Below are positions 12,958 through 63,700 of a DNA stretch of 64,000 nt, one piece after another (within the stretch, counting starts at the first letter, position 1; the number at the start of each line of letters is the position of its first letter). The notes beneath the pieces were generated by a model. That model was not told where the DNA came from. It ran no database searches and was given only the letters and a program-made list of their open reading frames with translations. The stretch lies in assembly GCA_052327205.1 (NCBI GenBank), contig CM126214.1, positions 141,918,001 to 141,982,000 of the forward strand, written 5' to 3'. A program made the position numbers and the translations under genes. This stretch comes from Somniosus microcephalus (taxonomy: Eukaryota).

Positions 12958-13160
12958 GGGTGTCTTACAGTTGCCCTAACTGCTCTAGATAAGGGTAGGA
13001 AAATATTGGGCAGAGTTCCTGTCCCCGATCATTTTCCAGTAACTCCTTATTGGTTTGTGTGTGTGTATGCATGCACGCCTGGTGAGGATGAGATTGTACT
13101 TGGCTAATGTTCCTGCTCTTGATCACTATCCAGTGAACCCTAAAGGGAAGTGCCCGTATG
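12958..13160 (+). mobile_element. LF-SINE-like fragment with an internal duplicated segment, abutting a MITE
   Basis: 'gttcctgtccccgatcattttccagtaac' and 'gttcctgctcttgatcactatccagtgaac' are two copies of the same LF-SINE core segment. The sequence ends at the MITE's TA. Confidence 0.5.
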
Positions 13161-13162
13161 TA

Positions 13163-13491
13163 CAGGAAACTTCGCGATATCCGGCACCGACGTGATGCCG
13201 ATCTATGGAAACTTCCGGACCGACCAGTGCTAATGTTGAAGGATACGGAGGTTTTCATCTTCGTATCTGACAACAAACACTGTTGCTTAGCAACAGCTTG
13301 TAGACAGTCGGCCCGTACCTTGGAAGTGTCTCTGTAGCTTAACAACAGCTTCAGAGAGGCTTTCCAGAGACTGACTGACTTTAAAAAAAATGCTAGGAGA
13401 AGGAAAAAAAACCTAACAAAACGGCTGCTGATTTCTGCCGTTGGATCGAGGTTTCCAGACATACAACCTCCGGATAAACCAAAGTTTCCTG
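13163..13491. mobile_element. Tc1/mariner-pogo (Tigger-like) MITE, family A copy 1
   Basis: TA flanks at 13161-13162 and 13492-13493. TIRs CAGGAAACTTCGCGATATCCGG / CCGGATAAACCAAAGTTTCCTG. Homologous along its length to 17492-17825. Confidence 0.85.
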
Positions 13492-14798
13492 TAGAAGTTG
13501 GTGAGGTAAGATTAGCCTTGGCTGTAATGCTCCCATGGTGGATTCCTTGACCCATTGACTAGCCATGGTGCCCAAGAGTAAGTCTTGCAAGGCTCCTTAA
13601 TTTTTCTATCATTATGCTTTGGGGCAGTTAGAATATAAATTAGAGGAAACTGAGTGCATCTAATCTGTGTGGTATTGGGGAGAGAAAGAGGAAGAATGGC
13701 AGAAAGAAACTTGCAGTGACATCAAATGAATTGGAAATATACTGAGGGGGAGTATTGGAAAAAGTGGCAATAGCAATAAATGACATCCACTATGCATTGC
13801 AAATGGACATCTTTTACAAAATTACATAAACCTAATATCAAGATTACAAAAATAATAGAAGAAATTGATGAGGGTGGTGTAATAGCAATTGCAAACGGAC
13901 TGACAGTTCAAATACCCTGTACCTGCAACCTCTGGTTCATGATAAAATATATTGTTTAGAAGTTCAGTCATTATGCTCGCTCTTGAACTGAATTTAGTAT
14001 AGTGCTGTGGCCCCAAATCGGGGCATACGTTGGACGGTGTCTGACACGTACTTGTCTATGGAGCAGGAATTTAAATGAAGCGTTTATTCATTTCTTGTTC
14101 AAATTGCTGCTGGAATTGCCTACAGTGGGAATGAGACAGTTTGCAACTTGGAAGCAGCATAAGCCTATATGATTAAAAGCTCAGGTTTGGAAATATTATT
14201 GGTTTAGATATAGGGAATGGTGCCAGCACGTCCTGTTGACTTGGACTGTGGCAAATGTAAGTGTATACAGAGGCTTTTAATGGAACTACAGATTTAATTA
14301 TAAAAAGCCCTTTCCTTGGTAATTCAATAATGTACAAATAGTCATCGAGGTTGTCCCACGTATCTATTATTAACATGTTTGTATTCTCATTTAGTAAACC
14401 CCTCAAACAGTTTTTTTTTAATGTAACAGCTAAATGATTTTTCCACCGTCAAACAGTGTTATGCTGACTTTCAAAAAAGTTAGTCATACAAAGTAATTTT
14501 TATTTTATTATTAAAGTTCTATTAAACTGCATATATTTTAACAAATTTATGATTGTACTGACACTAAATTGAAAACCCAGTTTTGTTTCATTGATAGGAG
14601 CAATTATTGTGTGTCCTGGATTTTTTTTTGAAGTACCAGTACTTGGGGGAATTTTCATTTACCCCTGCAAATAGCAAAATAACTACAGTATTGGTGTTTG
14701 TTATTCTGCCTGCCCGTATATATTGACGTTAATTCTCGTGTCAAAATAAAGAAGATAAAATGACCCAATTGCCATATAACGAAAATATGTCTAAATTA

Positions 14799-27654: not shown

Positions 27655-27762
27655 ATGTACCAGCTTCCTGTCAACAACCTTGCAAATCTAAGAAAGGCTC
27701 GTAAAACAGTGAAAAAGATCCTTACAGATATTGGCTTGGATTATTGTAAAGATCATATAGAG
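27655..27762 (+). CDS. ADNP: ADNP coding exon 1 (exon begins at 27650)
   Basis: Acceptor 'aaacag|AAACTATG'. Translates [36 protein letters not shown], matching the ADNP N-terminus. Phase-0 donor 'GAG|gtaagt'. Confidence 0.97.
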
Positions 27763-28464
27763 GTAAGTAGAAATTTTTGTTTTTGGAGGAGGTGAAACTG
27801 GATTCAAATCCCATCCCCTCACATACTGATATAAAACTCCCTTTTGTTAGCTTTAAGAGTTTAAAAGGCAATGAGTTTGTGTAATTATTGGAGCCCTAAG
27901 TCCATAACACAATAATCTAGAACCTACCATTTCCACGTTGTAGACTTGCGCAGAGGAGCTACACAGGCAGCTGATGTGGGGAAAATGTTACATTGTTGCA
28001 ATAAAAGGTGCTCTTCTGAGTTCGATGTATCAGATTATTAGAGAGAGCTTTACTCTGCTTATGCTTGATGCTCCTTGTGTACATGGTTACAGAGGAAATT
28101 GCTTCTTGGGGTGCTGGTCAGAACGTCATGAGATTGTTTTCTTAGAGTTGTTTCTTAATGACTGTTGTCTGTATAATTCTAAGTAGATCAAGATTCTTGC
28201 TGTCTTGTCAGCAAACTACCGTGTACTCACATCTGAACATAAGAATATAAGAAATAGGAGCAGGAGTAGGCCAATCGGCCCCTCGAGCCTGCTCCGCCAT
28301 TCAATAAGATCATGGCTGATCTGATCCTAACCGCCAATCTACTATCACAGAACCATCTCCTGAATCTAACAGAATAAAACACACGAAATAGGAGCAGGAT
28401 CAGGCTACACGGCCCCTGGGCCCGCTGTGCTACCCACAGGGCCATGTCCGATCCAAACCTAGAC

Positions 28465-31419
28465 TCATGTCCAAATTCCTGCCCGCTCCCCGTAACCCTT
28501 AATTCCCTTTATTTCTAGGAAACTGTCTATTTCTGTTTTAAATTTATGTAATGATGTAGCTTCTACATCTTTTTGGGGCAGCATATTCCATGGACCTACC
28601 ACCCTCTTGAGTGAAGTAGTTCCTCCTCATCTCAGTTTTGAAAGAGCAGCCCCTTATTCTAAGACTATGCCCCCTAGTTCTAGTTTCACCCATCATCGGG
28701 AACATCCTCCCCGCATCCACCCGATCCAACCCCTTCACAATCTTATATGTTTCAATAAGATCGCCTCTCATTCTTCTGAACTCCAATGAATAGAGTCCCA
28801 ATCTACTCAACCTCTCCTCATCCCCGGGATTAACCGAGTGAACCTTCTTTGTACTGACTCGAGAGCAAGTATGTCTTTTCTTAAGTATGGACACCAAAAC
28901 TGTATGCAGTATTCCAGGTGCGGTCTCACCAATACCTTGTACAACTGAAGCAATACCTCCCTATTTTTATATTCTATCCCCCTAGCAATGAAAGCCAACA
29001 TTCCATTGGCCTTCTTAATCACTTGCTGCACCTGCATACTAACCTTTTGAGTTTCGTGCACCAGGACCCCCAGATCCCTTTATACTTCAGTACTTTCCAG
29101 TTTCTTGCCATTAAGATAATAACTTGCTCTACGATTTTTCCTGCCAAAGTGCATAACCTCACACTTTCCAGTATTGTATTCCATCTGCCAAATCTCTGCC
29201 CACTTACTTAGCCTATGTCCCCTTGCAGGTTTTTTATGTCCTCCTCACTCACTACTTTCCCTCCCATCTTAGTATCATCTGCAAACTTTGATATGTTACA
29301 CTCTGTCCCCTCCTCCAAATCGTTAATATAGATTGTAAAGAGTTGGGGACCCAGCACTGACCCCTGCGGAACACCACTAGTTACTGATTGCCAGTCTGAG
29401 AATGAACCATATATCCCAACTCTCTGCCTTCTGTTAGATAGCCAATCCTCTATCCATGCCAGAATATTACCCCTAATCCTGTGATTTTTTATCTTAAGCA
29501 ATAATCTTTTGTGTGGCACCTTGTCAAATGCCTTTTGGAAGTCTAAATACACTACATCCACTGGTTCCCCTTTATCCACCCTATATGTTACTTCCTCAAA
29601 GAACTCCAGCAAATTTGTCAGACTTCCCCTTCATAAAACCATGCTGACTTTGTCCTATTAAATTATGATTATCCAAATGTCCTGTTACTGTCTCCTTAAT
29701 AATGGACTCCAAAATTTTACCTACCGCAGATGTTAGGCTAACCGGTCTATAGTTTCCAGCCTTCTGTCTACTGCCCTTTTTAAATAAGGGTGTTACATTA
29801 GCAGTTTTCCAGTCTGCCGGGACCTTTGCTGAGTCCAGGGAGTTTTGGAAAATTATTACTAAAGCATCCACAATCCCTACCGCCACTTCCCTCAAGACCC
29901 TAGGATGTAAGCCATCAGGTCCAGGTGATTTAACCGCCTTGAGTCCCATTATTTTACCAAGTACCACTTCCTTAGTGATTTTGATCGTGTTTAGCTCCTC
30001 CCCCCCCCCATAGCCCCCTGTTTGTCCAGTGTTGGGATATTCTTAGTGTCCTCTACTGTAAAGACTGATACAAAATATTCATTCAGTGTTTTTGCCATCT
30101 CCATATTTCCCACCATTTCCCGGTCTCATCCTCTAAGGGACCAACATTTACTTTAGCCACCCTTTTTCTTTTTATATAACTATAAAAACTCTTACTATCT
30201 GCTTTTGTATTTTTTGCTAATTTACTTTCATAATCTATCTTCCCTTTCTTAATCAATCTTTTTGTTATTTTTTGCTGTCTTTTAAAGTTTTCCCAATCCT
30301 CTATCCTCCCACTAGATTTGGCTACCTTATATGCCCTTGTTTTTAGTCGAATACTATCCTTAATTTCTTTACTTAGCCACGGATGGCTGTCTTTTCTTTT
30401 ACACCCTTTTCTTCTCAGTGGAATATATATTTTTTGGAAGTTGTAAAATAACTCCTTAAATGTACACCACTGATCATGTATCGTCTTACCCTTTAATCTA
30501 TTTTCCCAATCCACTCTACTCAATTCCGCTCTCATACCTTCATAGTCTCCTTTATTCAAGCTTAGCATGCTTGTTTGAGATCCAACCTTCTCACCCTCTA
30601 ATTGAATATGGAATTCAACCATGTTATGGTCACTCATTCCAAGGGGATCCTTTACTAGGACATTTTTAATTAATCCTGTCTCATTACACAGGACCAGATC
30701 TAAGGTTGCTTGCCCCCTGGTCGGTTCAGTTACATACTGCTCAAGAAACCAATCCCTAATACACTCAATGAACGCATCCTCAAGGCAGCCCTGCCCAATT
30801 TGATTTGTCCAATTAATATGATAGTTAAAATCCCCCATAATTATAGATGTTCCCTTATTACAAGCCTCAACTATTTCCTGATTGATACTCCGTCCGACAG
30901 TGTTGCAACTGTTCAGAGGCCTATAGACTACGCCCACTAGTGTTTTTTTTCCCCTTATTATTCCATATCTCCACCCAAACTGTTTCATTGTCCTGATCTT
31001 TTGACCCAATATCATTTCTCTCTATTACAGTGATTCCTTCCTTTATTAACATAGCCTCCCCTTCCTTCCTGCCTGTCCTTCCTGATCGTTAAATAACCTG
31101 GTATGTTTAATTCCCAGGCATTGTCACCCTGCAGCCATGTTTCTGTAATGGCCACAAGATCATACCCATATGTAGTTATTTGTGCCATTAACTCGTCTAT
31201 TTTGTTACAAATGCTACGTGTTTTCAGATAGAGAACTTTCAAATATGTTTTGTGACACTTAGTTCCTGCTTTTGCCCTTTTTATTACTTTACCTTTTACT
31301 CCATACCTTCTGCCCCTTCCTGACACGCTCTGGTTTTTAATTTCCCCTCTGCTACCTAAGTCTATGACCTTCTCTGTTGTCATTTTTATTATTTGCTCTC
31401 TAGGAACCTCCCCCCCCAC
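28465..31419 (-). pseudogene. CR1 ORF2 (APE endonuclease-reverse transcriptase), multiple frameshifts
   Basis: Six consecutive ORF-track fragments carry EN and RT motifs in the expected order. Stop after ...RAGIWT. Confidence 0.92.
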
Positions 31420-31422
31420 TAG

Positions 31423-32376
31423 TTAGTTTAAAGCCCTCTCTACAGCCCTAGTTATATGATCCGCCAGGACTCTAGTCCCAGCACTGGCCAAGTGAAGCAT
31501 GTCCCAACGGAACAGCTCCCTCCTGCCCCAGTACTGGTGCCAGTGTCCGAGGAAGCAAAACCCATTTCTCTCACACCGGTCTTTGAGCCACGCATTTAAC
31601 TCTCTAATTTTATTTGTCCTAGCCAAATTCGTTCGTGGCTCAGGTAATAATCCAGAGATTATTACCCTTGAGGTTCTGTTTTTTAATTTGACCCCTAGCT
31701 GCTCATACTCCTTTAACAGAACCGGCTTCCTAGTCCTATCTACGTCGTTTGTACCAACATGGACCACGACAACTGGATCCACCCCCTCCCACCAAGTTTC
31801 TTTCCAGCCCAGAGGAGATGTCCTTAACCCTGGTACCGGGTAGGCAACACAGCCTTCGGGACTCTCGCTCTCGGCTGCAGAGAACTCTTATCTATCCCCC
31901 TAATAATACTATCCCCTACCACTACAACATTTCTATTTACTCCCCCCTCTTGAATGGCCCCCCCGTTCCACGGTGCTGTGGACAGGTTGCTCATCCTCCC
32001 TGCAGTCCCTGCTCCTGTCCCCACAGGGAGTAAGAACCTCGAACCTGTTGGACAAGAGCAAGGGCTGCGGCTCCTCCAGCTCTACCTCCTGGATCCCCAT
32101 ACCTGCCTCACTCGTAGTCACACCGTCCTGTCCCTGACCATGGGCTACATCTGAATTAATTAACTTCATAGGTGTGACCACCTCCTGATACACAGAGTCC
32201 AGGTACTTCTCCCCCTCCCTGATGTGTAGCAGTGTCTGAAGCTCAGACTCCAACTCATCAACACGGAGCTGGAGTTCCTGTAGCAGCAGACACTTGTCAC
32301 AGACGTAATCACCGTGAGCCTCAATGGGGTCCACCGGCTCCCACATCTCGCAACAGTAACACATCACCTGCTCCAT
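31423..32376 (-). pseudogene. CR1 ORF1 (Cys-rich/coiled-coil plus SGNH esterase), broken by frameshifts
   Basis: ORF-track pieces 31933-32376, 31824-32024 and 31423-31782 concatenate into one ORF1 ending RAVERALN*. Confidence 0.9.
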
Positions 32377-32587
32377 TCTATGTAATTAATTAAATTTTTT
32401 ATTGTTAGTTATGGACACCCTCTGTCCGATTTTAGATGCTGGTATCCCCTTTAATTAATTGGATTTAAATTAAATCAATCCCTCTAATTACACCAGTTAA
32501 ATGGTTTACCAACAGTCACTCTGCACCAGAAAGGCCTTATTAACTACAACCCACAGAGTTAAAGTTTGAAAAGAGCACCTAACACCC

Positions 32588-32897
32588 CACTTACCCAAAC
32601 TCACAGCACTCTCTGCTGACTCGCACTAGGACTGGTCTTTTTATACTGTTTGTTTGTTTACAGCCAAATGAGTCACCCCTGCTGATTGGTTAGAAAACTG
32701 GTTTCCACTGCCTGCTGTGCCAATTTACTCCTACTGCAGTGTAACCTTGTTTTACTCTTCTTAAACCAACAGAATCCCAAATATTTAACTTTTCCCCTTT
32801 ACTTAAACTGCTTAAGTAATCTTATCAAGAATGATTTAAAGAGAAATAACAATTAAAGAACTCTCGCACTTACCCAAACTCTCAGCACTCTCTGCTG
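32588..32897 (-). promoter_or_regulatory. Pol II promoter in the CR1 5' UTR, between two 31-bp direct repeats
   Basis: Minus strand: AACCAATCAGC (CCAAT 32689-32685), TGACTCA (32675-32669), GTAAACA (32661-32655), TATAAAAA (32645-32638), Inr-like TCAG at ~32617. Repeats 32588-32618 and 32867-32897 are 30/31 identical. Confidence 0.65.
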
Positions 32898-33951
32898 CAT
32901 TGTAGTGTGCAATGGCTTATTTGCTTTTGCATCTGTTAATTCTAGCTTATCTAAAAACAGGCCCAGTTACATTTGAAAATTTATTTTATTTTTGTATTGA
33001 AATTTAAGATTTTCAAGAAACCATACCCTCTCACGGATGTGTTGAATTCATAACTTTGTTTTTCTCAGAATAAGCTAAAGTGCTTTTCCCCAATAAATTT
33101 AGACACATATATAAATGTTTTTTTTAAATAATTTCCAGTACTGTTTTTATTGGTAAATTTTCACATTGCGATCTGTTTAGGGGTGTGTAGTTTGTGTGCT
33201 TGTTGCTGGTCTTTTTTTTTTAATCTCAAAAAATTGTGTTATTGCTAATTGCGCCTTGGCCAAGGATAACAATTTGGGAAAGTGGCGTGAGCACATAACC
33301 ACACAACTGAATTTGGTATCTGGTGAAAATATTCGTACCTCAACAGTTGATGGGGACTGCATTTGGCTCTTTTAGTTAAGAGTTTCGATCAGGATTTGAG
33401 AGTGAGGATAAATTTAACATAATGTATGTTTTTTCTCTGACCTCTATTTGACTGGGAGCCAAATTAAGCTCTGAGAATTCGTGCTAATTCTTATTTGAAA
33501 TCAATTCCTTTTATGCTCCCATTAATTTCAAACATAGGATGTTTTTTACTAACTTTGTGTGGAAGTTTTTTTTAAGGATAACCACACAATCAAGGATTTA
33601 AACTTTTAATTTTTGTCCTCTGAGCCAGAATAAGAAACTAGTTTTGAACTCAATCACTGCTGATTTGTACACACACTTGAAGGAATTTACTGACTATTGG
33701 AGAAGTTGCTACTCTGTAAAGCAATACTGCACGATATGAAGTTTATGTTGACATGTTGCTGCTTGGTCTGTTTGAAGTGATTGTAATTTATACTTTTTGC
33801 ATTCCCTTTGGGAGAGAAGAAAATTAAAATCTGTTGCTCTGATGCAAAGTTTCAGTGGAAGGTTTTTACTTAATGACAAAGAATAAAAAAAATAATGTAT
33901 TAAAAATCTTTTTTATATATTATTTATATACAACTAAAACTGTTCTTCCAG

Positions 33952-34044
33952 GATTTCAAACAGTTCGAACCAAATGACTTCTACCTGAAGAACACTACGT
34001 GGGACGATGTCTCGCTTTGGGACCCTTCTTCTACAAAGCTACAG
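33952..34044 (+). CDS. ADNP: ADNP coding exon 2
   Basis: Acceptor 'ttcttccag|'. Translates [31 protein letters not shown] (93 nt, phase 0/0). Donor 'CAG|gttagt'. Confidence 0.97.
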
Positions 34045-34993: not shown

Positions 34994-37900
34994 GATTATC
35001 GTACAAAACCATTTTGCTGCAGTGCTTGTCCTTTTGCATCCAAATTTTTTTCTGCCTACAAGAGCCACTTCAGAAATGTTCATAGTGAAGATTTTGAAAA
35101 CAAAATCCTGATAAATTGCCCTTATTGTCCATACAATGCTGACAGAAAGACCCTGGAGACCCATATCAAGATTTTTCATGTTCCTCTCTGGAAAGTACCC
35201 AGTGGAGGCAAGAATGCACACAATGAAAAGTCAAAGCAGGATGGCAATCTTAAACTGAAACATGCTGACAGCGTGGAGCAAGCAGTCTATTACTGTAAGA
35301 AGTGTACCTACCGAGATCCTCTGTATGATGTTGTCAGGAAACATATTTACAGGGAACATTTTCAACATGTGGCAGCGCCTTATGTGGCGAGAACAGGAGA
35401 CAAGTCGGTGAATGGCACATTTTCTGCCCCTAATGGACGAGATGATGGGACTGTACATTGCAAACGTTGTCTCTTCATACCCAAGACTTACGAGGCCTTG
35501 GTGCAGCATGTTATTGAAGACCATGAACGAATAGGATACCAAGTAACAGCAATGATAGGGCATACTAATGTGGTAGTACCAAGATCAAAGCCCTTGATGT
35601 TGATAGCACCAAAGCCACACGATAAGCCTTCTCTAGCTGCCGCAAATTATCAGAGTATTAAAACTTCAATGCAGCAGAATATGAATCGTGTATCCATGTC
35701 CAAAAGCGCACAGAATTCTGCAGTCAATCTTATGTCGAGTACTGGTCGTCTGCCACCAAAATATGCCATTTCATCAATGGCGCATAACTATTCTTTGGGG
35801 CAACAAATTAGACTCCCACTGCCAGGTGGTTTGCCAGTTTCCCTTCAGCAGCGATCACAAACAGTAAAACAGTTAATCTCCAGTGGCAATGGTAGGCAAT
35901 ATGGAGTTAGTGCTGGAGAACAGAGGCGGCCATCTCAGATGCAATATAATGTTCAGTCAGGAAGCTTGACCGGTAACAGTGCGTCCAGTCAATTGTCAAT
36001 GAAACAGTCGCAGTTCAGTATTTCTCAAGCACAAAGGATGCAAGGATTGTCCAGTTCAGCGGTAAAGTCATTAACTTCTCCAGCAGGCCTCACTAATTCT
36101 GCTACACAGAGCTCTGCATTGGCTGGTTCTGCTGCTCAGAAATGGAAGATCTGCACAATGTGTAATGAGCTTTTCCCAGAAAGTGTGTATAGCATACACT
36201 TTGAAAAGGAGCATAAAGCTGAAAAGATCCAGGCCGTAGCTAATTATATTCAGAAGATCAACAGTTTCACGAGCAAGTGTCTCTACTGCAACCGTTATTT
36301 ACCCAGTGAAACACTGCTTAACCATATGCTTATACATGGACTGTCGTGTCCCTACTGCCGTTCCACTTTCAATGATGTTGAAAAGATGGCTGAACATGTA
36401 AGAATCCTTCACATTGATGAAGAAGTGGGACCCAAGACTGAGTCAACATTAACTTTTGATTTGTCTACACAGAAGGGTAGTCGCAGTAATATACAACTCC
36501 TTGTAACTACATACAGTATTTCTGAGAGTCCCTCAATGGAGAATGCAAACTACCGACCCCAGAATCAGAACTTAACATTCAGAAAGCCAGAAGGGCAGTT
36601 GCAGCAGCCAAAACCACAGGTCAAATCTAAAATAAAGCCAGATTTGAATTCTATACCTCAAACCCAAATTCCCTATAAAAATGATGTTGGAAAAACCCTT
36701 TGCCCGTTGTGTTTCTCTATTTTGAAGGGCCCGATATCGGATGCTTTGGCTCACCATCTGAGGGAACGGCATCAGGTGATACAAACCATTCATCCAGTGG
36801 AGAAAAAACTCACCTATAAATGCATTCACTGTTTGGGAGTCTACACGAGTAACATGACCGCCTCTACTATAACATTGCATCTGGTACACTGTAGAGGTGT
36901 TGGAAAAGCACAAAATGGTCAAGATCGAAGTCTTGCTCATGCCAAGGTAACACACTCACCAAGTGTAATGCCCATGAAACGTGAATATGAGTATGAATAT
37001 GGGGACTTTGCTTTAATGAAAAAAAGGAAATTGGATGGTGAGGAGACTGTCCAGAGTTTTACCTTGGGAGAGGAAAAACTGGAGGAGCCAATAGTTTTGG
37101 CTATTGATCCAAAGGGCTATGAGGACGAGTCCTACGAGGCCAGAAAAATGTTTCTCACAAACTACTTTAACAAGCAACCCTACCCAAATCGAAGGGAAAT
37201 TGAAAAGTTGGCAGCTGGCTTATGGTTATGGAAATCGGACATTGCCTCACACTTCAGCAATAAGAGGAAGAAATGTGTTCGGGATTGTGAGAAGTACAGG
37301 CCCAAGGTATTGCTGGGATTTAACATGATGGAGTTGCGAAAGGTAAAGCACAATATGGACTTTGGGCCTACTTGGAATATGTTAAATAACAAAGAAGTAG
37401 GTGGCAAAGAATCCGCCAGTTCAAAACCAAACTCGGAGAAAGTGAATCGGAAGACCGAGAAAGAGAAAAGAGATTTGAATCTGGGATCAGAAAAGGTGGA
37501 GGCAAGTGTTTTGGATTTGAGCTCCCAAATGGAGGAAAATTCAAATCCAAACTCAGAAAAGGTAGAGGGAGGTGCTTCGAGCCAGAGCTCAGAAAAAATG
37601 GAGGGAAGTGCTTTAGATTTGAGCACTCAGATGGAAGAAAGTCCTTCAAACGTGAGCTCTGAGATGGTGGAGGGAACACCATTAGATTTGAGTGCTCAGA
37701 TGGTAGAGGAAACCCCTTCAATCAAGAGCGCTGAGATGGTGGAGGAAAGTCCTTCAAATGTGAGTTCTGACATGGCGGAGGGAACTGCTTTAGATTTGAG
37801 TTCTCAGATGGTGGAGGGAAGCCCTTCAATCAAGAGCGCTGAGATGGTGGAGGGAAGCCCTTCAAATATGAGCTCTGAGATGGTGGAGGGAAGCCCTTCA

Positions 37901-38644
37901 AATATGAGCTCTGAGATGGTAGAGGAAAATGCTTCAAATATGAGCTCTGAGATGGTGGAGGAAAATGCTTCAAATACTTGTGCAGGTGAAGATTTGCCAT
38001 CAACTGAAATGGGTAGAGAAGAAACTTCTGAAATGTTGAGTAATGAATTGCAAAAACCTGCATTGGCGCTGAAGGATGATGAATCAAATATGGAAGAGGA
38101 GCAATATCCTGAGCCAGCTTCAGAATCAAAAGATAAAGAATCAGAAAGTGAGGATTCTGAAGAATTCTCGGAATGTAAAGATGGTGTTTCTCCGACTGAG
38201 GATGGACTAGCATCTCCACAAGCATCTGATCAGGAGGATGTTTCATCTGAACTCAAACAAGAGTTTTGGATCAAACGACCGTGGACAGATGATGCATCCC
38301 AAAGTGAAGAGGAGCAGGAGCCCACACGGTCCTCTGAAACAAAAGCTGCATTAGAAAGTGATGAACAGAACTGGACAGAAGGTCCAGCTGAGTGGAGTGG
38401 AGAGCCTTTCCAAAATGAAGAAGAAAAGTGGGCCAAAGAACAGCCTGAATGGAAGAATGTTTCGCCAGAGAATGAGGAAAGTTTGTCTAATCCACTGTTG
38501 GAGTGGCAAGGTAACACAGCAGATAGTGAAGCTGAGGAGCTTGATCAGCTCCTCGATCAGTCAAATGATGGTCTTTCAGATAATGTGGCAGAACCGGTTT
38601 GTGGCTCATCATCTGGTGTTGGGCTAAGTAGTCAGCCTGCATAG
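34994..38644 (+). CDS. ADNP: ADNP coding exon 3: C2H2 zinc fingers, NLS, homeodomain, PxVxL motif, acidic tail
   Basis: Acceptor 'ttttcag|'. Begins [14 protein letters not shown], in frame with the 1123-aa ORF of the track. Contains [45 protein letters not shown], the homeodomain [29 protein letters not shown] and PKVLL (37301-37315), and ends LSSQPA*. Joined CDS is 3852 nt = 1283 aa. Confidence 0.98.
37430..37980 (+). repeat. Coding tandem repeat, ~33-36-bp units, in ADNP exon 3
   Basis: Unit like 'agctctgagatggtggagggaagcccttcaaatatg' ([12 protein letters not shown]), roughly 15 copies, most homogeneous at the 3' end. Confidence 0.9.
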
Positions 38645-49259: not shown

Positions 49260-49740
49260 TGAATTCAGTTTCTAAATCAAATTATGTAAATTAAAAACAG
49301 TAGTCTTTGCAACACTGAGCACCCCCGTTCAGAACAGCCCACCCCACCATAACCTCTTACAAGTACCTGTTGTTTTCTACCCTTTAACCAGTTTCTTATC
49401 CATTCCCAAACTTACCCTGAATCTATATAGCTTTGTGCTTTACTAGTAGCTTTCCTTTTAGAACTTTGTCAAGTGCCTTTTGCATATCTAGGTACAGCAC
49501 ATCAGAGTTGTCACTTCTTCATAGCGACCGTAATATGATTGAGTTCAATGTTGTGTGAAATGCAAAACAGCTACTAAGATACTAGATTTAGGTAAGGCCG
49601 ACTTCAACGGGATGAAACTGGGCAAATCTGTTAATAGATAAAATGACAGAAGATCAGTGGGAGATGTTTAAAAAAGAATTTAATGTGATACAGAACCAGT
49701 TTATACCCCTGAGGGGCAAGAGCTCGACTGACCAAAAAGT
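49260..49740. mobile_element. Two short old CR1 fragments in opposite orientation
   Basis: Minus-strand RT piece (DVLYLDMQKALDKV near 49460-49503), then a plus-strand post-endonuclease piece (SD.NMIEF..KADFNGM..DQWEMFK, 49524-49740). Confidence 0.6.
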
Positions 49741-49743
49741 CAA

Positions 49744-51489
49744 AAGAAATAGGAGCAGGAGTAGGCCAATCGGCCCCTCGAGCCTGCTCCGCCATTCAAT
49801 AAGATCATGGCTGAGCTGATCCTAACCGCCAATCTACTATCGCAGAACCATCTCCTAAATCTAACAGAATTAGACACACGAAATAGGAGCAAGATCAGGC
49901 TACACGGCCCCTGGGCCCGCTCCGCTACCCACAGGGCCATGACCGATCCGAACCTAGACTCATGTCCAAATTCCTGCCCGCTCCCCGTAACCCTTAATTC
50001 CCTTTACTTCTAGGAAACTCTCTATTTCTGTTTTAAATTTATGTAATGATGTAGCTTCTACAGCTTTTTGGGGCAGCATATTCCATGGGCCTACCACCCT
50101 CTGAGTGAAGTAGTTCCTCCTCATCTCAGTTTTGAAAGAGCAGCCCCTTATTCTAAGACTATGCCCCCTAGTTCTAGTTTCACCCATCATCGGGAACATC
50201 TTCCCTGCATCCACCCGATCCAACCCCTTCACAATCTTATATATTTCAATAAGATCGCCTCTCATTCTTCTGAACTCCAATGAGTAGAGTCCCAATCTAC
50301 TCAACCTCTCCTCATATGTCCATCCCCGGGATTAACCGAGTGAACCTTCTTTGTACTGACTCGAGAGCAAGTATGTCCTTTCTTAAGTATGGACACCAAA
50401 ACTGTTCCCAGTATTCCAGGTGCGGTCTCACCAATACCTTGTACAACTGAAGCAATACCTCCCTATTTTTATATTCTATCCCCCTAGCAATGAAAGCCAA
50501 CATTCCATTGGCCTTCTTAATCACTTGCTGCACCTGCATACTAACCTTTTGAGTTTCGTGCACCAGGACCCCCAGATCCCTTTCTACTTCAGTACTTTCC
50601 AGTTTCTTGCCATTAAGATAATAACTTGCTCTACAATTTTTCCTGCCAAAGTGCATAACCTCACACTTTCCAGTATTGTATTCCATCTGCCAAATCTCTG
50701 CCCACTTACTTAGCCTGTCTATGTCCCCTTGAAGGTTTTTTATGTCCTCCTCACTCACTACTTTCCCCCCCATCTTAGTATCATCTGCAAACTTTGATAT
50801 GTTACACTCGGTCCCCTCCTCCAAATCGTTAATATAAATTGTAAAGAGTTGGGGACCCAGCACTGACCCCTGCGGAACACCACTAGTTACTGATTGCCAG
50901 TCTGAGAATGAACCATTTATCCCAACTCTCTGCCTTCTGTTAGATAGCCAATCCTCTATCCATGCCAAATATTACCCCCAATCCCGTGATTTTTTTATCT
51001 TAAGCAATAATCTTTTGTGTGGCACCTTGTCAAATGCCTTTTGGAAGTCTAAATACACTATGTCCACTAGTTCCCCTTTATCCACCCTATATGTTACTTC
51101 CTCAAAGAACGCCAGCAAATTTGTCAAACATGACTTCCCCTTCATAAAACCATGCTGACTTTGTCCTATTAAATTATGATTATCCAAATGTCCTGTTACT
51201 GTTTCCTTAATAATGGACTCCAAAATTTTACCTACCGCAGATGTTAGGCCTTCTGTCTACTGCCCTTTTTAAATAAGGGTGTTACATTAGCAGTTTTCCA
51301 GTCTGCCGGGACCTTTGCTGAGTCCAGGGAGTTTTGGAAAATTACCAATGCATCCACAATCCCTACCGCCACTTCCCTCAAGACCCTAGGATGTAAGCCA
51401 TCAGGTCCAGGTGATTTATCCGCCTTGAGTCCCATTATTTTACCGAGTACCACTTCCTTAGTGATTTTGATCCTGTTTAGCTCCTCCCC
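49744..51489 (-). mobile_element. CR1 LINE copy 2 (same young family as copy 1), 5'-truncated
   Basis: Near-identical to 28250-30003. RT motifs in ORFs 51244-51453, 50972-51223, 50312-50968 and 49960-50304. Confidence 0.95.
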
Positions 51490-51490
51490 A

Positions 51491-51585
51491 GAGTCAGAGA
51501 TGGACCATGTGAAGGTGAGGGAAGGGTGAATGAAATTGTCTAGTTCAGGGCGAGAGCAGGAAACGGCACCGATACAGTCATCAAT
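51491..51585 (-). mobile_element. Penelope-like element RT fragment
   Basis: Minus strand translates IDDCIGAVSCSRPELDNFIHPSLTFTWSISD, the (Y)IDD..HP.L.FT pattern of PLE reverse transcriptases. Confidence 0.75.
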
Positions 51586-51589
51586 AATC

Positions 51590-52925
51590 TGGTTAGCCTA
51601 ACATCTGTTGTTGGGAAATTATTAGTGTCTATAATAAGGATGGAGTGACTGAACACTTTAAATTTTCAGCTGATGAGAGAGAGAGCCAGCATGGATTTGT
51701 AGAAGGTGGGTCATGCCTGACAGACCTGATTGAGTTTTTTTTGAAGAGGTGACTATAGTAGTGGACAGGGGACTGTCTATGAATGTTATTTATATGGATT
51801 TCCATAAGGCATTCGATAAAGTTCCTTATAAGACAGTTGGCTAAAGTTGAAGCTCATGGAATTAAGGGCAAATTATTGACCTGGTTAGGAGATTAGCTGA
51901 GCGGCAGGAGACAGAGAGTAGGGATAATGGGCAAGTAGTCTAATTGGCAGGCTGTGACTAGTGGTGTCCCACAGGGATCTGTGTTAGGGCCTCAACTATT
52001 CACTGTATTTATTAATAACTTAGATGATGGGATAGAAAGTCATATATCCAAGTTTGCTGATGATAGACAGCATTGTAAGCAGTGTAGATGGAAGCAAAAC
52101 TTACAAAGATATTAATAGATTGGGCAAAACTGTGGCAAATGGAATTCAATATACATAAATGTGAGGTCATCCACTTTGGACCTAAAAAGGATAGATCAGA
52201 GTACTTTCTAAATGGTAAATAGCTAGAAACAGTGGAGTTCCAAAGAGACTTAGGGGTCCACATACATAGAGAATTAAAATGCCATGGACAGGTACAAAAA
52301 AAAAATCTAAAGGCTTGTGGAATGCTGGTCTTTATATCTAGAGGACTAGAATACAAGGGGTTAGAAGTTGTGCTGCAGCTATACAAAGCCCTGGTTAGAC
52401 CACACCTGGAGTACTGTATTCAGTTCTGGGCACCACACCTTGGGAAGGATATACTGGCCTTGGAGGGAGTGCAGCGTAGACTTACTAGAATGATACCTGG
52501 ACTCCAAGGGTTAAATTACGAGGAGCAATTACATAGTGTTCTATTCCCTGGAATTTAGAAGATTAAGGGGTGATTTGATTGAAGTTTAAGCTATTAAGGG
52601 GAACTGATGGGGAAGATAGTGAGAAATTATTTTTGCTGGTTGGGGAATCTAGGACTAGTGGACAGAGCCTAAAAATTAAAGCCAGGCCTTTCAGGAGTGA
52701 AGTTAGGAAATCACTCCTACACGCAGAGCAGGGTAGAAGTTTGGAACTCTCTTCAGCAAACGGCAGTTGGTGCTGGGTCAATTTTTGATTTTAAATCTAA
52801 GATTGATAGATTTCTGTTAACCAAAGGTATTAAGGAATATGAAGTTAGGTAACAGATCAGCCATGGTCTCATTGAATGGTGGAACAGGCTCGAGGGACTA
52901 AATGGCCTACTCCTGTTATGTTCAA
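51590..52925 (+). mobile_element. CR1 LINE, older subfamily, 5'-truncated and decayed
   Basis: RT motifs ([35 protein letters not shown]) with many indels. Single 3' module ending 'ggcctactcctgttatgtt'. Confidence 0.9.
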
Positions 52926-54505: not shown

Positions 54506-57500
54506 CATAACATAAGAAATAGGAGCAGGAGTAGGCCAATTGGCCCCTCGAGCCTGCTCCGCCATTCAATAAGATCATGGCTGATCTGATCCTAGCCGCC
54601 AATCCACTATGACAGGACTATCTCCTGAATCTAACAGAATTAGACACACGAAACAGGAGCAGGATCAGGCTACACGGCCCCTGGGCCCGCTCCGCTACCC
54701 ACAGGGCCATGACCGATCCGCACCTAAACTCATGTCCAAATTCCTGCCCGCTCCCCGTAACCCTTAATTCCCTTTTCTTCTAGGAAACTGTCTATTTCTG
54801 TTTTAAATTTATGCAATGATGTAGCTTCGACAGCTTTTTGGGGCAGCATATTCCATGGACCTACCACCCTCTGAGTGAAGTAGTTCCTCCTCATCTCAGT
54901 TTTGAAAGAGCAGCCCCTTATTCTAAGACTATGCCCCCTAGTTCTAGTTTCACCCATCATCTGGAACATCCTCCCCGCATCCACCCGATCCAACCCCTTC
55001 ACAATCTTATATGTTTCAATAAGATCGTCTCTCATTCTTCTGAACTCCAATGAGTAGAGTCCCAATCTACTCAACCTCTCCTCATATGTCCATCCCCTCG
55101 ATTAACTGAGTGAATCTTCTTTGTACTGACTCGAGAGCAAGTATGTCTTCTTAAGTATGGACACCAAAACTGTATGCAGTATTCCAGGTGCGGTCTCACC
55201 AATACCTTGTACAACTGAAGCAATACCTCCCTATTTTTATATTCTATCCCCCTAGCAATGAAAGCCAACATTCCATTGGCCTTCTTAATCACTTGCTGCA
55301 CCTGCATACTAACCTTTTGAGTTTCGTGCACCAGGACCCCCAGATCCCTTTCTACTTCAGTACTTTCCAGTTTCTTGCCATTAAGATAATAACTTGCTCT
55401 ACGATTTTTCCTGCCGAAGTGCATAACCTCACACTTTCCAGTATTGTATTCCATCTGCCAAGTCTCTGCCCACTTACTTAGCCTGTCTATGTCCCCTTGC
55501 AGGTTTTTTATGTCCTCCTCACTCACTACTTTCCCTCCCATCTTAGTATCATCTGCAAACTTTGATATGTTACACTCGGTCCCCTCCTCCAAATCGTTAA
55601 TATAGATTGTAAAGAGTTGGGGACCCAGCACTGACCCCTGCGGAACACCACTGGTTACTGATTGCCAGTCTGAGAATGAACCATTTATCCCAACTCTCTG
55701 CCTTCTGTTAGATAGCCAATCCTCTATTCATGCCAGAATATTACCCCCAATCCCGTGATTTTTTATCTTAAGCAATAATCTTTTGTGTGGCACCTTGTCA
55801 AATGCCTTTTGGAAGTCTAAATACACTACGTCCACTGGTTCACCTTTATCCACCCTGTATGTTACTTCCTCAAAGAACGCCAGCAAATTTGTCAAACATG
55901 ACTTCCCCTTCATAAAACCATGCTGACTTTGTCTTATTAAACTATGATTATCCAAATGTCCCGTTACTGTCTCCTTAATAATGGACTCCAAAATTTTACC
56001 TACCACAGATGTTAGGCTAACCGGTCCATAGTTTCCAGCCTTCTGTCTACTGCCCTTTTTAAATAAAGGTGTTACATTAGCAGTTTTCCAGTCTGCTGGG
56101 ACCTTTGCTGAGTCCAGGGAGTTTTGGAAGATTATTACCAATGCATCCACAATCCCTACCGCCACTTCCCTCAAGACCCTTGGATGTAAGCCATCAGGTC
56201 CAGGCGATTTATCCGCCTTGAGTCCCATTATTTTACCGAGTACCACTTCCTTAGTGATTTTGATCGTGTTTATCTCCTTCCCCCCCCCCCCCCCCCCCCA
56301 TAGCCCCCTGCTTGTCCAGCGTTGGGATATTCTTGGTGTCCTCTACTGTAAAGACTGATACAAAATATTCATTGTGTTTTTGCCATCTCCATATTTCCCA
56401 CCATTAATTTCCCAGTCTCATCCTCTAAGGGACCAACATTTACTTTAGCCACCCTTTTTCTTTTTATATAACTATAAAAACTCTTTATCTGTTTTTATAT
56501 TTTTTGCTAATTTACTTTCCTAATCAATCTTTTTGTTATTTTTTGCTGTCTTTTAAAGTTTTCCCAATCCTTTATCCTCCCACTAGATTTGGCTACCTTA
56601 TATGCCCTTGTTTTTAGTCGAATACTATCCTTAATTTCTTTACTTAGCCACGGATGGCTGTCTTTTCTTTTACACCCTTTTCTTCTCAGTGGAATATACT
56701 TTTTTTGGAAGTTGTAAAATAACTCCTTAAATGTACACCACTGATCATGTATCGTCTTACCCTTTAATCTATTTTCCCAATCCACTTTGCTCAATTCTGC
56801 TCTCATACCTTCATAGTCTCCTTTATTCAAGCTTAGCACGCTTGTTTGAGATACAACCTCCTCACCCTCTAATTGAACATGGAATTCAACCATGTTATGG
56901 TCACTCATTCCAAGGGGATCCTTTACTAGGACATTTTTAATTAATCCTGTCTCGTTACACAGGACCAGATCTAAGGTTGCTTGCCCCCTGGTCGGTTCAG
57001 TTACATACTGCTCAAGAAACCCATCCCTAATACACTCAATGAACTCATCCTCAAGGCAGCCCTGCCCAATTTGATTTGTCCAGTTAATATGATAGTTAAA
57101 ATCCCCCATAATTATAGATGTTCCCTTATTACAAGCCTCAACTATTTCCTGATTGATACTCCGTCCAACCGAGTTGCAACTGTTCGGAGGCCTATAGACT
57201 ACGCCCACTAGTGTTTTTTTCCCCTTATTATTCCTTATCTCCACCCAAACTGTTTCATTATCCTGACCTTTTGAGTCAATATCATTTCTCTGTATTAGTG
57301 ATTCCTTCCTTTATTAACATAGCCACCCCACCTCCCCTTCCTTCCTGCCTGTCCTTCCTGATCGTTAAATAACCTGGTATGTTTAATTCCCAGGCATTGT
57401 CACCCTGCAGCCATGTTTCTGTAATGGCCACAAGATCATACCCATATGTAGCTATTTGTGCCATTAACTCATCTATTTTGTTACGAATGCTGCGTGCATT

Positions 57501-58413
57501 CAGATAGAGAACTTTCAAATGTGTTTTTTGACACTTAGTTCCTGCTTTTGCCCTTTTTATTACTTTACCTTTTACTCCATACCTTCTGCCCCTTCCTGAC
57601 ACGCTCTGGTTTTTCATTTCCCCACTGCTACCTAAGTCTCTGACCTTCTCTGTTGTCATTTTTATTATTTGTTCTCTAGGAACCTCCCCCCACTAGTTAG
57701 TTTAAAGCCCTCTCTACAGCCCTAGTTATATGATCCGCCAGGACCCTAGTCCCAGCACTGGCCAAGTGAAGCCCGTCCCAACGGAACAGCTCCCTCCTGC
57801 CCCAGTACTGGTGCCAGTGTCCCAGGAAGCAAAACCCATTTCTCCCACACCAGTCTTTGAGCCACGCATTTAACTCTCTGATTTTATTTGTCCTAGCCAA
57901 ATTCGCTCGTGGCTCAGGATTATTACCCTTGAGGTTCTGTTTTTTAATTTGACCCCTAGCTGCTCATACTCCTTTAACAGAACCGGCTTCTTAGTCCTAT
58001 CTATGTCGTTTGTACCAACATGGACCACGACGACTGGATCCACCCCCTCTCACTGCAAGTTTCTTTCCAGCCCAGAGGAGATGTCCTTAACCCTGGCACC
58101 GGGTAGGCAACACAGCCTACGGGACTCTCGCTCTTGGCTGCAGAGAACTCTATCTATCCCCCTAATACTACTATCCCCTACCACTACAACATTTCTATTT
58201 ACTCCCCCCTCTTGAATGGCCCCCCGTTCCACGGTGCTGTGGCCAGGTTGCTCATCCTCCCTGCAGCCCCTGCTCCCGTCCCCACAGGGAGTAAGAACCT
58301 CGAACCTGTTGGTCAAGTGCAAGGGCTGCGGCTCCTCCAACACTACCTCCTGGTTCCCCGTACCTGCCTCACTCGTAGTCACACCGTCCTGACCCTGGCC
58401 ATGGGCTACATCT
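54506..58413 (-). mobile_element. CR1 LINE copy 3 (young family), truncated within ORF1
   Basis: Near-identical to 28238-32152. Has the ORF1 esterase part and the whole ORF2 region, with frameshifts. Confidence 0.95.
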
Positions 58414-60752: not shown

Positions 60753-63700
60753 ACTCAAAGTTCCAGGGTACTTGACGTTTCGAAAAGACAGGCAGAATGG
60801 AAAAGGAGGGAGTAGCCCTGATAATAAAGGATGACATAAGGACATTAAGGATCTCGGCTCGAAAGATCAGGAAGTAGAATCAGTATGGGTGGAGATAAGG
60901 AATAACTAGGGGCAGAAAACACTGGTAGGAGTAGTAAATAGGCCCCCCAACAGTAGCTATACCGTTGGACAGAATATTAATCAAGAAATAGTAGGAGCTT
61001 GCAACAAAGGTAATGCAATAATATTGGTGGACTTTAATCTTCATATAGGCTGGACAAAGCAAATTGGCAAAGGTAGTCTGGAGGACGAGTTCATGGAAAG
61101 CATTCAGGACAATTTCCTAGAACAATATGTCATGGAACCAACCAGGGAACAGGCTATTTTAGATCTTGTATTGTGTAATGAGACAGGGTTAATTAGCAAT
61201 CTCATAGTAAAGGATCCTCTGGGGCAGAGTGATCATAATATGATAGAATTTCACATTAATTTTGAGAGTGACTTGCCTAAGTCCTAAACTAGAGTCTTAA
61301 ACTTAATAAAGTCAATTACATAGGTATGAGGGGTGAGTTGGCTAAGGCAGATTGGAAAAATAGATTAAAAGCTATGGCGGTAGATAAGCAGTGGCTAGCA
61401 TTTAAAGAAATATTTCATAATTCTCAACAAAAATACATTCCATTGAGAAACAAAAACTCCACGGGAAAAGTGATCCAACCGTGGCTAACTAAAGAAGTTA
61501 AGGATAGCATTAGATTGAAAGAAGCAGCTTATAATGTTGCAAAGAATAATAATATACCTGAGGATTGGAAGAGTTTCAGAAACCAGCAAAGGTTGACCAA
61601 AAAAATTGATAAAAAAGGAAGAGAAAACTAGTGAGATATATAAAAGCAGATTGTAAGAGTTTCTACAAGTATGTAAAAAGGAAAAGAGTAGCAAAAGTAA
61701 ATGTTGGTCCGTTAGAGGCTGAGACAGGAGAAATTATTACAGGGAATAAGGAAATGGCACAAATGTTAAGCAAATATTTTGTTTCTGTCTTCACAGTAGA
61801 AGTCACAAAAAGCATACCAAAAATGGTATGGAACCAAGGGTCTAATGAGGGTGAGGAACTTAACGTAATTAATATAAGTAGAGAAAAAGTACTAGAGAAA
61901 CTAATGGGACTAAAAGCCGGCAAATCCCCTGGACCTGACGACCTACATCTTAGGGTTCTAAAAAAGAGGTGGCTGAAAAGATAGTGGATGCATTGGTTTT
62001 GATCTTCCAAAATTCCCTAGATTCTGGAATGGTCCCAGCGGATTGGAAGGTCACAAATGTAACACCGCTATTCAAGAAAGGAGGGAGAGGAAAAAACGGA
62101 ACTACAGGCCAGTTAGCCTGACATGAGTCGTTGGGAAAATGCTGGAATCCATTGTTAAGCAAGTGGTATCAAGTCACTTAGAAAATCATAACATGATTAG
62201 GCAGAGTCAACGTGGTTTTATGAAAGGGAAATCGTGTTTGACAAATTTATTAGTTTTTTGAGGATGTAACTAGCAGGGTAGATAAAGGGGAACCAGTGGA
62301 TGTACTATATTTGGATTTCCAAAAGACATTCGATAAGGTGCCACATAAAAGGTTATTACACAAGATTAGGGCTCATGGGGTTGGGATAATATAGTAGCAT
62401 GGATAGGACTCAATATCGAGTTCAACAATTTCAGATCATAACCCCATTACATTTTTACTTATATTTTTTATCCACCCCTTTGTTTTGGTATTTCCCCCCC
62501 CCCTTTCCTTTTTTTCTCTCTCTCTCCCACATGGCAGCTGTCTCTCTGCCAGAACATTTCACACCTAATCTGAGCCGTCTTTTGTCTCCACTAGTCCTAT
62601 CACCATCTCATCTCGTTTTGAATACCTCTTAACGTCTCTTCACTTCTTTTGTTCTCTCGCAGCCCTGCCTTTCGATCTATTTCATTTCCTTTCCAGTTTT
62701 GAAAAAAAGGGTTAGACCCGAAACGTCGACTCCAATTTCTCTCCACGGATGTTGCCTGGCCTGCTGAGTTTTTCCAGCATTTTCTGTTGTTATTTTGGAT
62801 TTCCAGCATCTGCAGTATTTTGCTATCGTAGCATGGATAGAGGATTGGTTAACGAACAGAAAACAGTAGGGATAAACAGATTTTTTCAGGTTGGCAGGCT
62901 GCAACTAGTGGGGTGCCGCAAGGATCAGTGTTGGGGTCTCAGCTATTTACAATCTATATTAATGACCTAGATGAAAGGACTGAGTAATGTATCCAAGTTT
63001 GCTGATGATACAAAGCTAGGTGGGACAGTAAGCTGTGAGGAGAACACAAAGAGTCTGCGAAGGGATGTAGATAGACTAAGTGAATGGGCAGTAAGGTGGC
63101 AGATGGAGAACAATGTAGGGAAATGTGTAGTTATTCACCTTGGTAGGAAGAATAGAAAACCAATATTTTTTTAAATGGTGAGTAACTTTCAAATGTTGGT
63201 GTTCAAAGAGATTCGGATGTCCTCGTGCAGGAAACACAGAAAGCTAACATGCAGGTACAGCAAGCAATAAGGCAGGCAAGTGGCATGTTGGCCTTTATTA
63301 CAAAGGGGTTGGAGTGTAAGAATAAGGAAGTCTTGCTACAATTGTACAGGGCCTTGGTGAGACCACACCTGGAGTACTGTGCACCATTTTGGTCTCCTTA
63401 TCTAAGAAAGGATATACTTGCCTTGGAGGCAGTGCAATGAAGGTTCACTAGATTGATTCCTGGGATGAGAGGGCTGTGCTATGATGAGAGATTGTGTAGA
63501 ATGGGCCTATACTCTGGAGTTTAGAAGAATGAGAGGTGATCTCATTGAAACAAGGGGATTGACGGGGTAGATGCTGAGAGGTTGTTTCCCCTGGCTGGAG
63601 TGTCTAGAACTAGGGGGCATAGTCTCAGGATAAGGGGTAGGCCATTTAAGACTGCGATGAGGAGGAATTTCTTCACTCAAAGGGTTGTGAATCTTTGGAA

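Follow-up and report, generated by a model that had tools for sequence, protein, structure and literature searches.

A conserved coding repeat array with four candidate CtBP-docking motifs in the ADNP tail of sharks and rays

ADNP is the targeting subunit of the ChAHP complex and is described as highly conserved, with an unstructured and poorly conserved tail (PMC11293393). In a stretch of 64,000 nucleotides from Somniosus microcephalus (assembly GCA_052327205.1, contig CM126214.1, positions 141,918,001 to 141,982,000, forward strand; hereafter the window, whose own numbering is used throughout), the tail of the encoded ADNP contains an acidic coding repeat array with four xLDLS motifs, which recur throughout the sharks and rays compared. 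Judged from its sequence, the array probably forms a disordered multivalent docking arm for CtBP1/2. Spelling and conservation of the motifs, and a separate acquisition of PLDLS by one group of teleosts, point in this direction, and the alternatives are weighed below.

Structure of the repeat array

The array comprises 14 clear units (Table 1), with a degenerate extension that reaches back to about 37454. A first-pass annotation of this DNA, made from the letters alone, had counted about 15 units of 11-12 residues (37496-37987 for the clear ones), in good agreement; the four motif positions that it gave do translate as VLDLS, ALDLS, PLDLS and ALDLS. Tandem Repeats Finder describes the core as 9.6 copies of 36 nucleotides with 78% matches (37632-37976). 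Read in this common 36-nucleotide register, the same codons spell PSNMS in a spacer and PLDLS in a motif, three single-base changes apart; thus, spacers and motifs alike are variants of a single unit. None of 100,000 shuffles of the 447-residue tail gave three or more LDL[ST] (2.2% gave one), a result that shows only that the copies are not independent accidents, since they were made by duplication.

Acidic residues occur in every unit, giving a net charge of -29 over 159 residues, and there are seven [ST]P sites. AlphaFold2 models the array as coil with predicted local distance difference test (pLDDT) values below 50, from a shallow alignment (26 sequences) with a mean pLDDT of 43.5; FoldIndex returns -0.122 for the array and -0.121 for the homeodomain region and does not separate the two. 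No match to the array was found among PDB sequences, and a search for shorter proteins carrying it found none. SQ and TQ are targets of the ATM/ATR kinase type, and one or the other follows motifs 1, 2 and 4 (37520-37528, 37622-37630 and 37799-37807), in a column whose Q is well kept; three sharks have TP in place of SQ/TQ behind motif 2.

Distribution among cartilaginous fishes

The best 120 of 407 matches in a homologue search, together with their cluster members, yielded 22 elasmobranch species. One isoform of each was aligned with the window, making 23 rows, and nine further isoform or duplicate rows were dropped. Four LDL[S/R] motifs are present in the same order in all 23 rows, and four motifs also occur in each of 10 further skate-like rows that were checked separately. 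Chimaeras have a single ALDLS, at the position of motif 2, together with SP-rich units (4/4 rows).

Start-to-start distances are 32-35 residues between motifs 1 and 2, 21-23 between motifs 2 and 3 (all 23 rows) and 48 between motifs 3 and 4. In the window alone the last distance is 36, corresponding to one spacer unit fewer; the window also has an extra PSIKS-type unit 3' of motif 4, and in batoids the array ends one unit earlier. Gains and losses of spacer units have therefore gone alongside a constant motif count of four, and unit number stays at 14-15 across the 23 rows.

The shark/ray split has been dated to about 306 million years ago (Ma) and the chimaera split to about 421 Ma (PMC3692497). 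To judge by its distribution, the four-motif state is older than the shark/ray split, and the array as aligned is old and nearly fixed in length across elasmobranchs, not hypervariable between species. The first-pass annotation had called it a minisatellite whose expansion may have served "this lineage" and proposed comparing unit number and motif retention across species. That comparison (14-15 units, four motifs in 23/23 rows) leaves standing the tandem period of 36 nucleotides in 9.6 copies, inside the 10-60 nucleotides expected of a minisatellite unit, does not bear out hypervariability between species, and extends the lineage from the window to elasmobranchs at large, with the array itself being real.

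Conservation of the LDL cores

Because the motifs were chosen from the sequence with no orthologues in view, their conservation is a real prediction. Changes were counted by Fitch parsimony over the 23 rows on an assumed species tree, the gene tree giving the same picture. LDLS positions show one change in 16 columns (S to R in motif 3, in Rhincodon and Stegostoma) and the LDL cores none in 12, compared with 183 changes in the 146 other columns of the array (Fisher P = 2.7e-5 against LDLS; 1.8e-4 by random 4x4-mer permutation). The greater conservation of LDLS than of the rest of the unit is the outcome that the first-pass annotation had proposed as a test. Elsewhere in the tail, changes per column average 0.70 for L, 0.95 for D and 1.04 for S.

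Control columns in the same register gave 47 changes in 33 columns when all 11 spacer units were used (P = 4e-4), and 24 changes in 24 columns, 14 of them invariant, for the eight closest spacer units (P = 0.015 for LDL and 0.04 for LDLS). Serines of the spacers are constrained too, and those of SPS are mostly invariant. Dropping the window row leaves the result unchanged. The residues flanking a given motif are retained from species to species, each motif having its own set, which argues against homogenisation of the units as the cause of the conservation. Thus, the LDL cores are under purifying constraint, a signal that is real and more modest against the nearest control.

Similarity of the motifs to CtBP-docking sites

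PLDLS is the canonical CtBP motif, through which E1A, CtIP and EBNA3C bind (PMC11209466). The two other spellings found in the window have also been reported as CtBP sites: EBNA3A is reported to bind CtBP1 via ALDLS and VLDLS, 29 residues apart (PMC4150796), ZBTB18 binds via VLDLS, with mutation of LDL abolishing binding (PMC9684030), and RAI2 binds through two ALDLS with about 5 uM per site, the central LDL, as a beta-strand, being the only specific contact with CtBP (PMC11187106). All four window motifs are identical to sequences reported to bind CtBP, as are 85 of the 92 copies in the 23 rows, spelled PLDLS, ALDLS or VLDLS to the letter; the seven others are five ILDLS and two PLDLR. The residues that are invariant in sharks, LDL, are the same as those that contact CtBP in RAI2.

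CtBP is described in the cited papers as a tetramer with four binding sites. In RAI2 the starts of the two ALDLS lie 26 residues from each other; the pair links CtBP tetramers into polymers and lifts repression, and it still does so when the linker is shortened by 11 residues to a spacing of 15 (PMC11187106). The spacing of 21-23 between motifs 2 and 3 falls within this range.

A second gain in teleost ADNPb

A motif of this kind stands directly 5' of a conserved EPIAIDSDS in 61 of 80 rows of teleost ADNPb (57 PLDLS, three PLNLS and one PPDLS; examples in Table 1). It was found in none of 45 other teleost rows (last 260 residues, some rows being assigned by likeness), LDL[ST] in none of 118 ADNP rows outside the chondrichthyans and the acanthomorph list (127,413 residues), and PLDLS, ALDLS or VLDLS in none of 67 new rows of ADNP2-like and ADNPa-like representatives, one of which has PVNLS. 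Tetrapod tails are without the array (for example, that of a bear, P0010, 1103 residues), as the first-pass annotation had stated for the tail of human ADNP.

In a tree of 40 rows, the teleost sequences with the motif group together in a single acanthomorph clade (support 1.0) that is distant from the chondrichthyans. PL[DN]LS arises by chance in 0.07% of tail shuffles, and the motif, at 2-10 changes per column, is more conserved than the linker, where most columns have 15-25. On the evidence of tree and distribution, acanthomorph ADNPb gained PLDLS independently of cartilaginous fishes. That the shark and teleost motifs share one ancient origin was considered and rejected, the motif being absent from all of the 45 other teleost rows and also from the gar, bowfin, sturgeon, bichir, coelacanth, lungfish and tetrapod rows. 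The only row with the motif under a non-acanthomorph label, P0233 (Lepidogalaxias salamandroides), nests among cods (89% identity to Gadus and Muraenolepis) and is probably mislabelled.

Other fish ADNP tails have features of their own. ISIDSDS is present in the ADNPa-like tails of teleosts, and IELSDDS in one cyclostome-like row (P0246, P0248, P0253, P0278, P0281 and P0272); like the IAIDSDS of ADNPb, we take these to resemble SUMO-interacting motifs (SIMs). It may be that a phospho-SIM-like motif is general to the ADNP tails of fishes and has so far gone undescribed. The ADNPa-like P0246 has a repeat tail of its own, unrelated to the shark array and built of VLLENENVDPNQ-type units, from which ADNP tails appear prone to repeat expansion. 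P0290 has a divergent ADNP-like C-terminus, and its N-terminus resembles a THAP domain.

Proposed role of the array

Under the reading that we favour, ADNP would have acquired a CtBP-docking arm, 3' of its HP1-binding motif, in the stem of the elasmobranchs. ADNP, held on DNA with CHD4 and HP1, would hold CtBP tetramers there, or cross-link them, by means of two to four weak sites, and CtBP-associated enzymes (HDAC, KDM1A), along with NAD(H) sensitivity, would be brought to ChAHP targets. Phosphorylation of the SP and SQ/TQ serines between and beside the motifs might tune access, a step that is speculative. Human ADNP co-purifies with LSD1 and G9a/GLP complexes, according to a preprint (bioRxiv 2025.03.06.641037).

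The first-pass annotation had proposed a multivalent CtBP co-repressor arm. Its docking part agrees with the constraint on LDLS and with motifs spelled like reported CtBP binders; its co-repressor part is only one possible outcome, because in RAI2 the effect of tandem ALDLS is to polymerise CtBP and lift repression. Recruitment for repression is nevertheless, by our own estimate, appreciably likelier than sequestration, because ADNP is DNA-bound and RAI2 is without a folded domain.

A wider scenario can be offered tentatively, as one that is unlikely to hold in all its parts. ADNP would have gained direct CtBP links twice, once as a motif in the chondrichthyan stem that was multiplied to four in elasmobranchs and once in acanthomorphs, the motif having been minted by point mutation in a minisatellite unit; the tetravalent arm would nucleate CtBP polymers on ChAHP chromatin, making ChAHP either an NAD(H)-sensitive polymer-forming repressor or a CtBP sink, a property absent in tetrapods.

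Several observations weigh against CtBP docking. The strict P-phi-D-phi-S consensus (PMC6777938) fits motif 3 only (21/23 rows), and motifs 1, 2 and 4 fail it. No report was found of CtBP binding by ILDLS (five rows), PLDLR (two) or FLDLS (one further row). PxDLS sequences can bind other partners, for example BMAL1/CLOCK (PMC4231743). The whole array is constrained, with two of the eight closest spacer cores wholly invariant, and the strictest control yields P values of only 0.015 and 0.04. In teleosts, 19 of the 80 ADNPb rows are without the motif, including syngnathiforms, dragonet, goby, turbot and remora, and the motif is less conserved than the adjoining SIM-like EPIAIDSDS (0-6 changes per column). 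SIM-like motifs in teleost ADNPa/ADNPb and cyclostome-like tails, finally, lend independent support to a SUMO-binding role for ADNP tails.

Alternative explanations

The array may dock CtBP with the opposite outcome, by forming RAI2-like filaments or foci that sequester CtBP, or a condensate at ADNP sites. This variant of the favoured reading is rather unlikely to describe the array and is a serious alternative all the same, because the motif 2-3 spacing, 21-23 in 23/23 rows, lies between the two RAI2 spacings (26, or 15 when shortened) that polymerise CtBP; four sites also provide a higher valency than RAI2's two. Against it stand the place of ADNP as a subunit of a DNA-bound repressor complex, compared with an RAI2 that has no folded domain, and the lone motif of chimaeras and acanthomorphs, which cannot cross-link from one chain.

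The array could instead be a phospho-regulated acidic module built on SP and SQ/TQ, or its LDL cores could bind another partner, with the likeness to CtBP sites incidental. The mostly invariant SPS serines, SQ or TQ after three of the four window motifs and the reported binding of PxDLS to BMAL1/CLOCK (PMC4231743) are consistent with such roles. They leave unexplained why the motifs are nearly confined to three reported CtBP-binding spellings and why acanthomorphs separately gained the canonical PLDLS, and we consider them rather improbable.

The main rival that dispenses with CtBP takes the xLDLS units to be SIMs, forming an RNF4-like reader of SUMO chains aided by acidic and phosphorylatable spacers. 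SIMb cores of the VIDLT/VDLT type need acidic flanks (PMC3901395), which an array with a charge of -29 would supply, V or I occupies the first position of motif 1, and the SIM-like motifs of other fish ADNP tails give a SUMO-binding role support of its own. However, T stands at position 5 in none of the 92 copies, although S to T is a single base change and the SIMb of RNF4 and PIAS end in T (PMC3901395); position 1 is fixed as A in motif 2 and P in motif 3 in 23/23 rows, and the cores have no beta-branched residue; and the acanthomorph PLDLS was added beside an existing SIM-like motif, not in its place. A SUMO reader is improbable.

Neutral expansion of a repeat in a disordered tail, with the motifs persisting through slow evolution, is very unlikely. 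Chondrichthyan rates are indeed slow (PMC3692497), ADNP tails are poorly conserved and a teleost ADNPa row (P0246) is also repeat-tailed; the comparison, however, uses the same tree and the same array as internal controls, with one change observed against about 13-20 expected, and motif count is steady at four while spacer units come and go.

An assembly artefact, which the first-pass annotation had named as a danger, has a negligible probability, since four motifs occur in 22/22 species and 10/10 skate-like rows and contigs of another sample (run X2, which comes from the same study and so lacks full independence) match the window with 0 differences over motifs 1-4 and the rearranged unit. The whole array is spanned by no single short-read contig, as contigs break within the last near-identical units, which leaves the exact number of copies at 37844-37951 without independent confirmation. 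Runs X13, X19 and X21 have a silent change at 37513, in a leucine codon of motif 1; X13 and X21 are out of register at 37768-37841, and differences there were not counted as motif changes.

The ADNP gene and its surroundings

The three coding exons (27655-27762, 33952-34044 and 34994-38644, plus strand) add up to 1283 residues, the length that the first-pass annotation had given. Pfam matches to the protein are ADNP_N (1190 bits) and the homeodomain. An ADNP_N zinc-finger region, homeodomain, PxVxL motif and C-terminal extension are all present and the nearest matches are named ADNP, as expected of an ADNP orthologue. The protein of the last exon has 95% identity to those of Pristiophorus and Heptranchias and groups with Pristiophorus, a placement indicative of a squalomorph shark. 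Full-length proteins with the motifs and first exons are found in relatives on contigs of 5.3-5.4 kb, shorter than the genomic span of 11 kb in the window, from which we infer that these contigs originate in spliced transcripts.

Table 1. Features of ADNP in the window, with teleost examples (aa, residues).
Feature	Positions or rows	Strand	Remarks
ADNP coding exon 1	27655..27762	+	36 aa; agrees with N-terminus of spliced relatives
ADNP coding exon 2	33952..34044	+	31 aa; AG/GT ends
ADNP last coding exon	34994..38644	+	1216 aa and stop; zinc fingers, homeodomain, PxVxL, array, acidic tail
Homeodomain, PF00046 match	37148..37273	+	E=1.5e-6; helices in AlphaFold2 model
PKVLL, HP1-binding PxVxL motif	37301..37315	+	from sequence; role from PMC11293393
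Coding repeat array	37496..37987	+	14 units of 11-12 aa; acidic; predicted disordered; 36-nucleotide core 37632-37976
Motif 1, VLDLS	37508..37522	+	V in 18/23 and I in 5/23 rows; LDLS invariant
Motif 2, ALDLS	37610..37624	+	ALDLS in 23/23 rows; sole motif common to chimaeras
Motif 3, PLDLS, canonical	37679..37693	+	PLDLS in 21/23 rows; PLDLR in Rhincodon and Stegostoma
Motif 4, ALDLS	37787..37801	+	A in 12/23 and V in 11/23 rows
Extra PSIKS-type unit copy	37808..37843	+	specific to the window's lineage; covered by record 14 of run X2 with 0 differences
Acidic C-terminal tail 3' of array	37988..38641	+	from sequence comparison
Acanthomorph ADNPb rows with PLDLS, examples	P0086, P0180, P0217		

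Two in-frame length differences lie 3' of the array. The window is without 18 nucleotides at 38060 that are present in runs X2 (same study), X13 and X19, which may be an allele or an assembly difference, and without 12 nucleotides at 38027-38034 that are present in X13, X19 and X21 and missing from X2 as well. Broken copies of retroelements of the long interspersed nuclear element (LINE) type, with endonuclease-like and reverse-transcriptase-like frames, occur at 28200-32400, 49700-52800, 54700-58400 and 60800-62100; presumably CR1-like, they include one copy within the ADNP intron 27763-33951. A stop-free frame of 197 codons (12965-13558, minus strand) lies 5' of the first ADNP coding exon.

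Significance

The top search results, in which subscription journals are mostly uncovered, contained no paper describing an array in shark ADNP or an interaction of ADNP with CtBP. CtBP is unmentioned in the main texts, as far as available, of the ChAHP2 paper, an ADNP review, an ADNP interactome preprint (whose full table could hold CtBP) and the ZMYM2 paper; it is also absent from the 11 supplementary files of the ChAHP2 paper, where a proteomics table, its bait unconfirmed, lists Chd4, Cbx1 and Zmym2. The relevant passages of a study of TBR1 name ADNP and CtBP solely as candidates of TBR1 (PMC10117376). As a kind, tandem non-canonical CtBP motifs are known already; what appears to be undescribed is that they lie in ADNP, that they arose in a coding repeat and that CtBP-type motifs were gained twice.

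ADNP is a much-studied neurodevelopmental gene, and the candidate CtBP motifs suggest that it has a partner in sharks and rays that mammalian ADNP lacks. If so, ChAHP would have been rewired to a different co-repressor by clade, in sharks and rays since before their split at about 306 Ma and separately in the largest clade of fishes. Tetrapod (no motif), chimaera or medaka (one) and shark (four) ADNP provide a natural series in which valency could be set against CtBP recruitment or RAI2-like polymerisation. Fish models may differ in ADNP biology, since the motif is present in the medaka row and absent in otophysan rows, zebrafish not being among the named rows. The array also illustrates clearly how a short motif can arise and multiply within a coding repeat.

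Comparison with known systems

RAI2 is similar to shark ADNP in its repeated ALDLS within a region that is disordered, as is predicted for the array, in its LDL core, upstream acidic residues and motif spacing (26 against 21-23 residues); it differs in having two motifs and no folded domain, whereas shark ADNP has four motifs, is a DNA-binding ChAHP subunit and carries them in a 36-nucleotide coding repeat (PMC11187106). EBNA3A of Epstein-Barr virus shares both non-canonical spellings, within a single C-terminal region, but it is a viral protein with two motifs and no PLDLS (PMC4150796). ZBTB18 (PMC9684030) and E1A, CtIP and EBNA3C (PMC11209466) are likewise transcription regulators that bind CtBP via VLDLS or PLDLS, in their case through single motifs, for which those passages describe no repeat origin.

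That a conserved transcription factor may carry, in one of its non-conserved parts, a CtBP motif restricted to some clades has a precedent in Su(H)/Hairless (PMC6777938), where it was validated by pull-down; there the motif was ancestral and then lost, whereas in ADNP it was gained twice and multiplied by a repeat in one clade. The tandem SIMs of RNF4 (PMC3901395) also comprise four short hydrophobic motifs with DL[ST]-like cores, in a region that is acidic and disordered, the latter being a prediction for shark ADNP, but their cores are of the VDLT/VVIV type, and in shark ADNP position 5 is S and position 1 is A or P. The closest relative by descent is mammalian ADNP, an orthologue acting in ChAHP with the same zinc fingers, homeodomain and PxVxL (PMC11293393, PMC10031977); it differs in that the tetrapod rows have no LDL[ST] and CtBP is unnamed in those main texts, as far as available.

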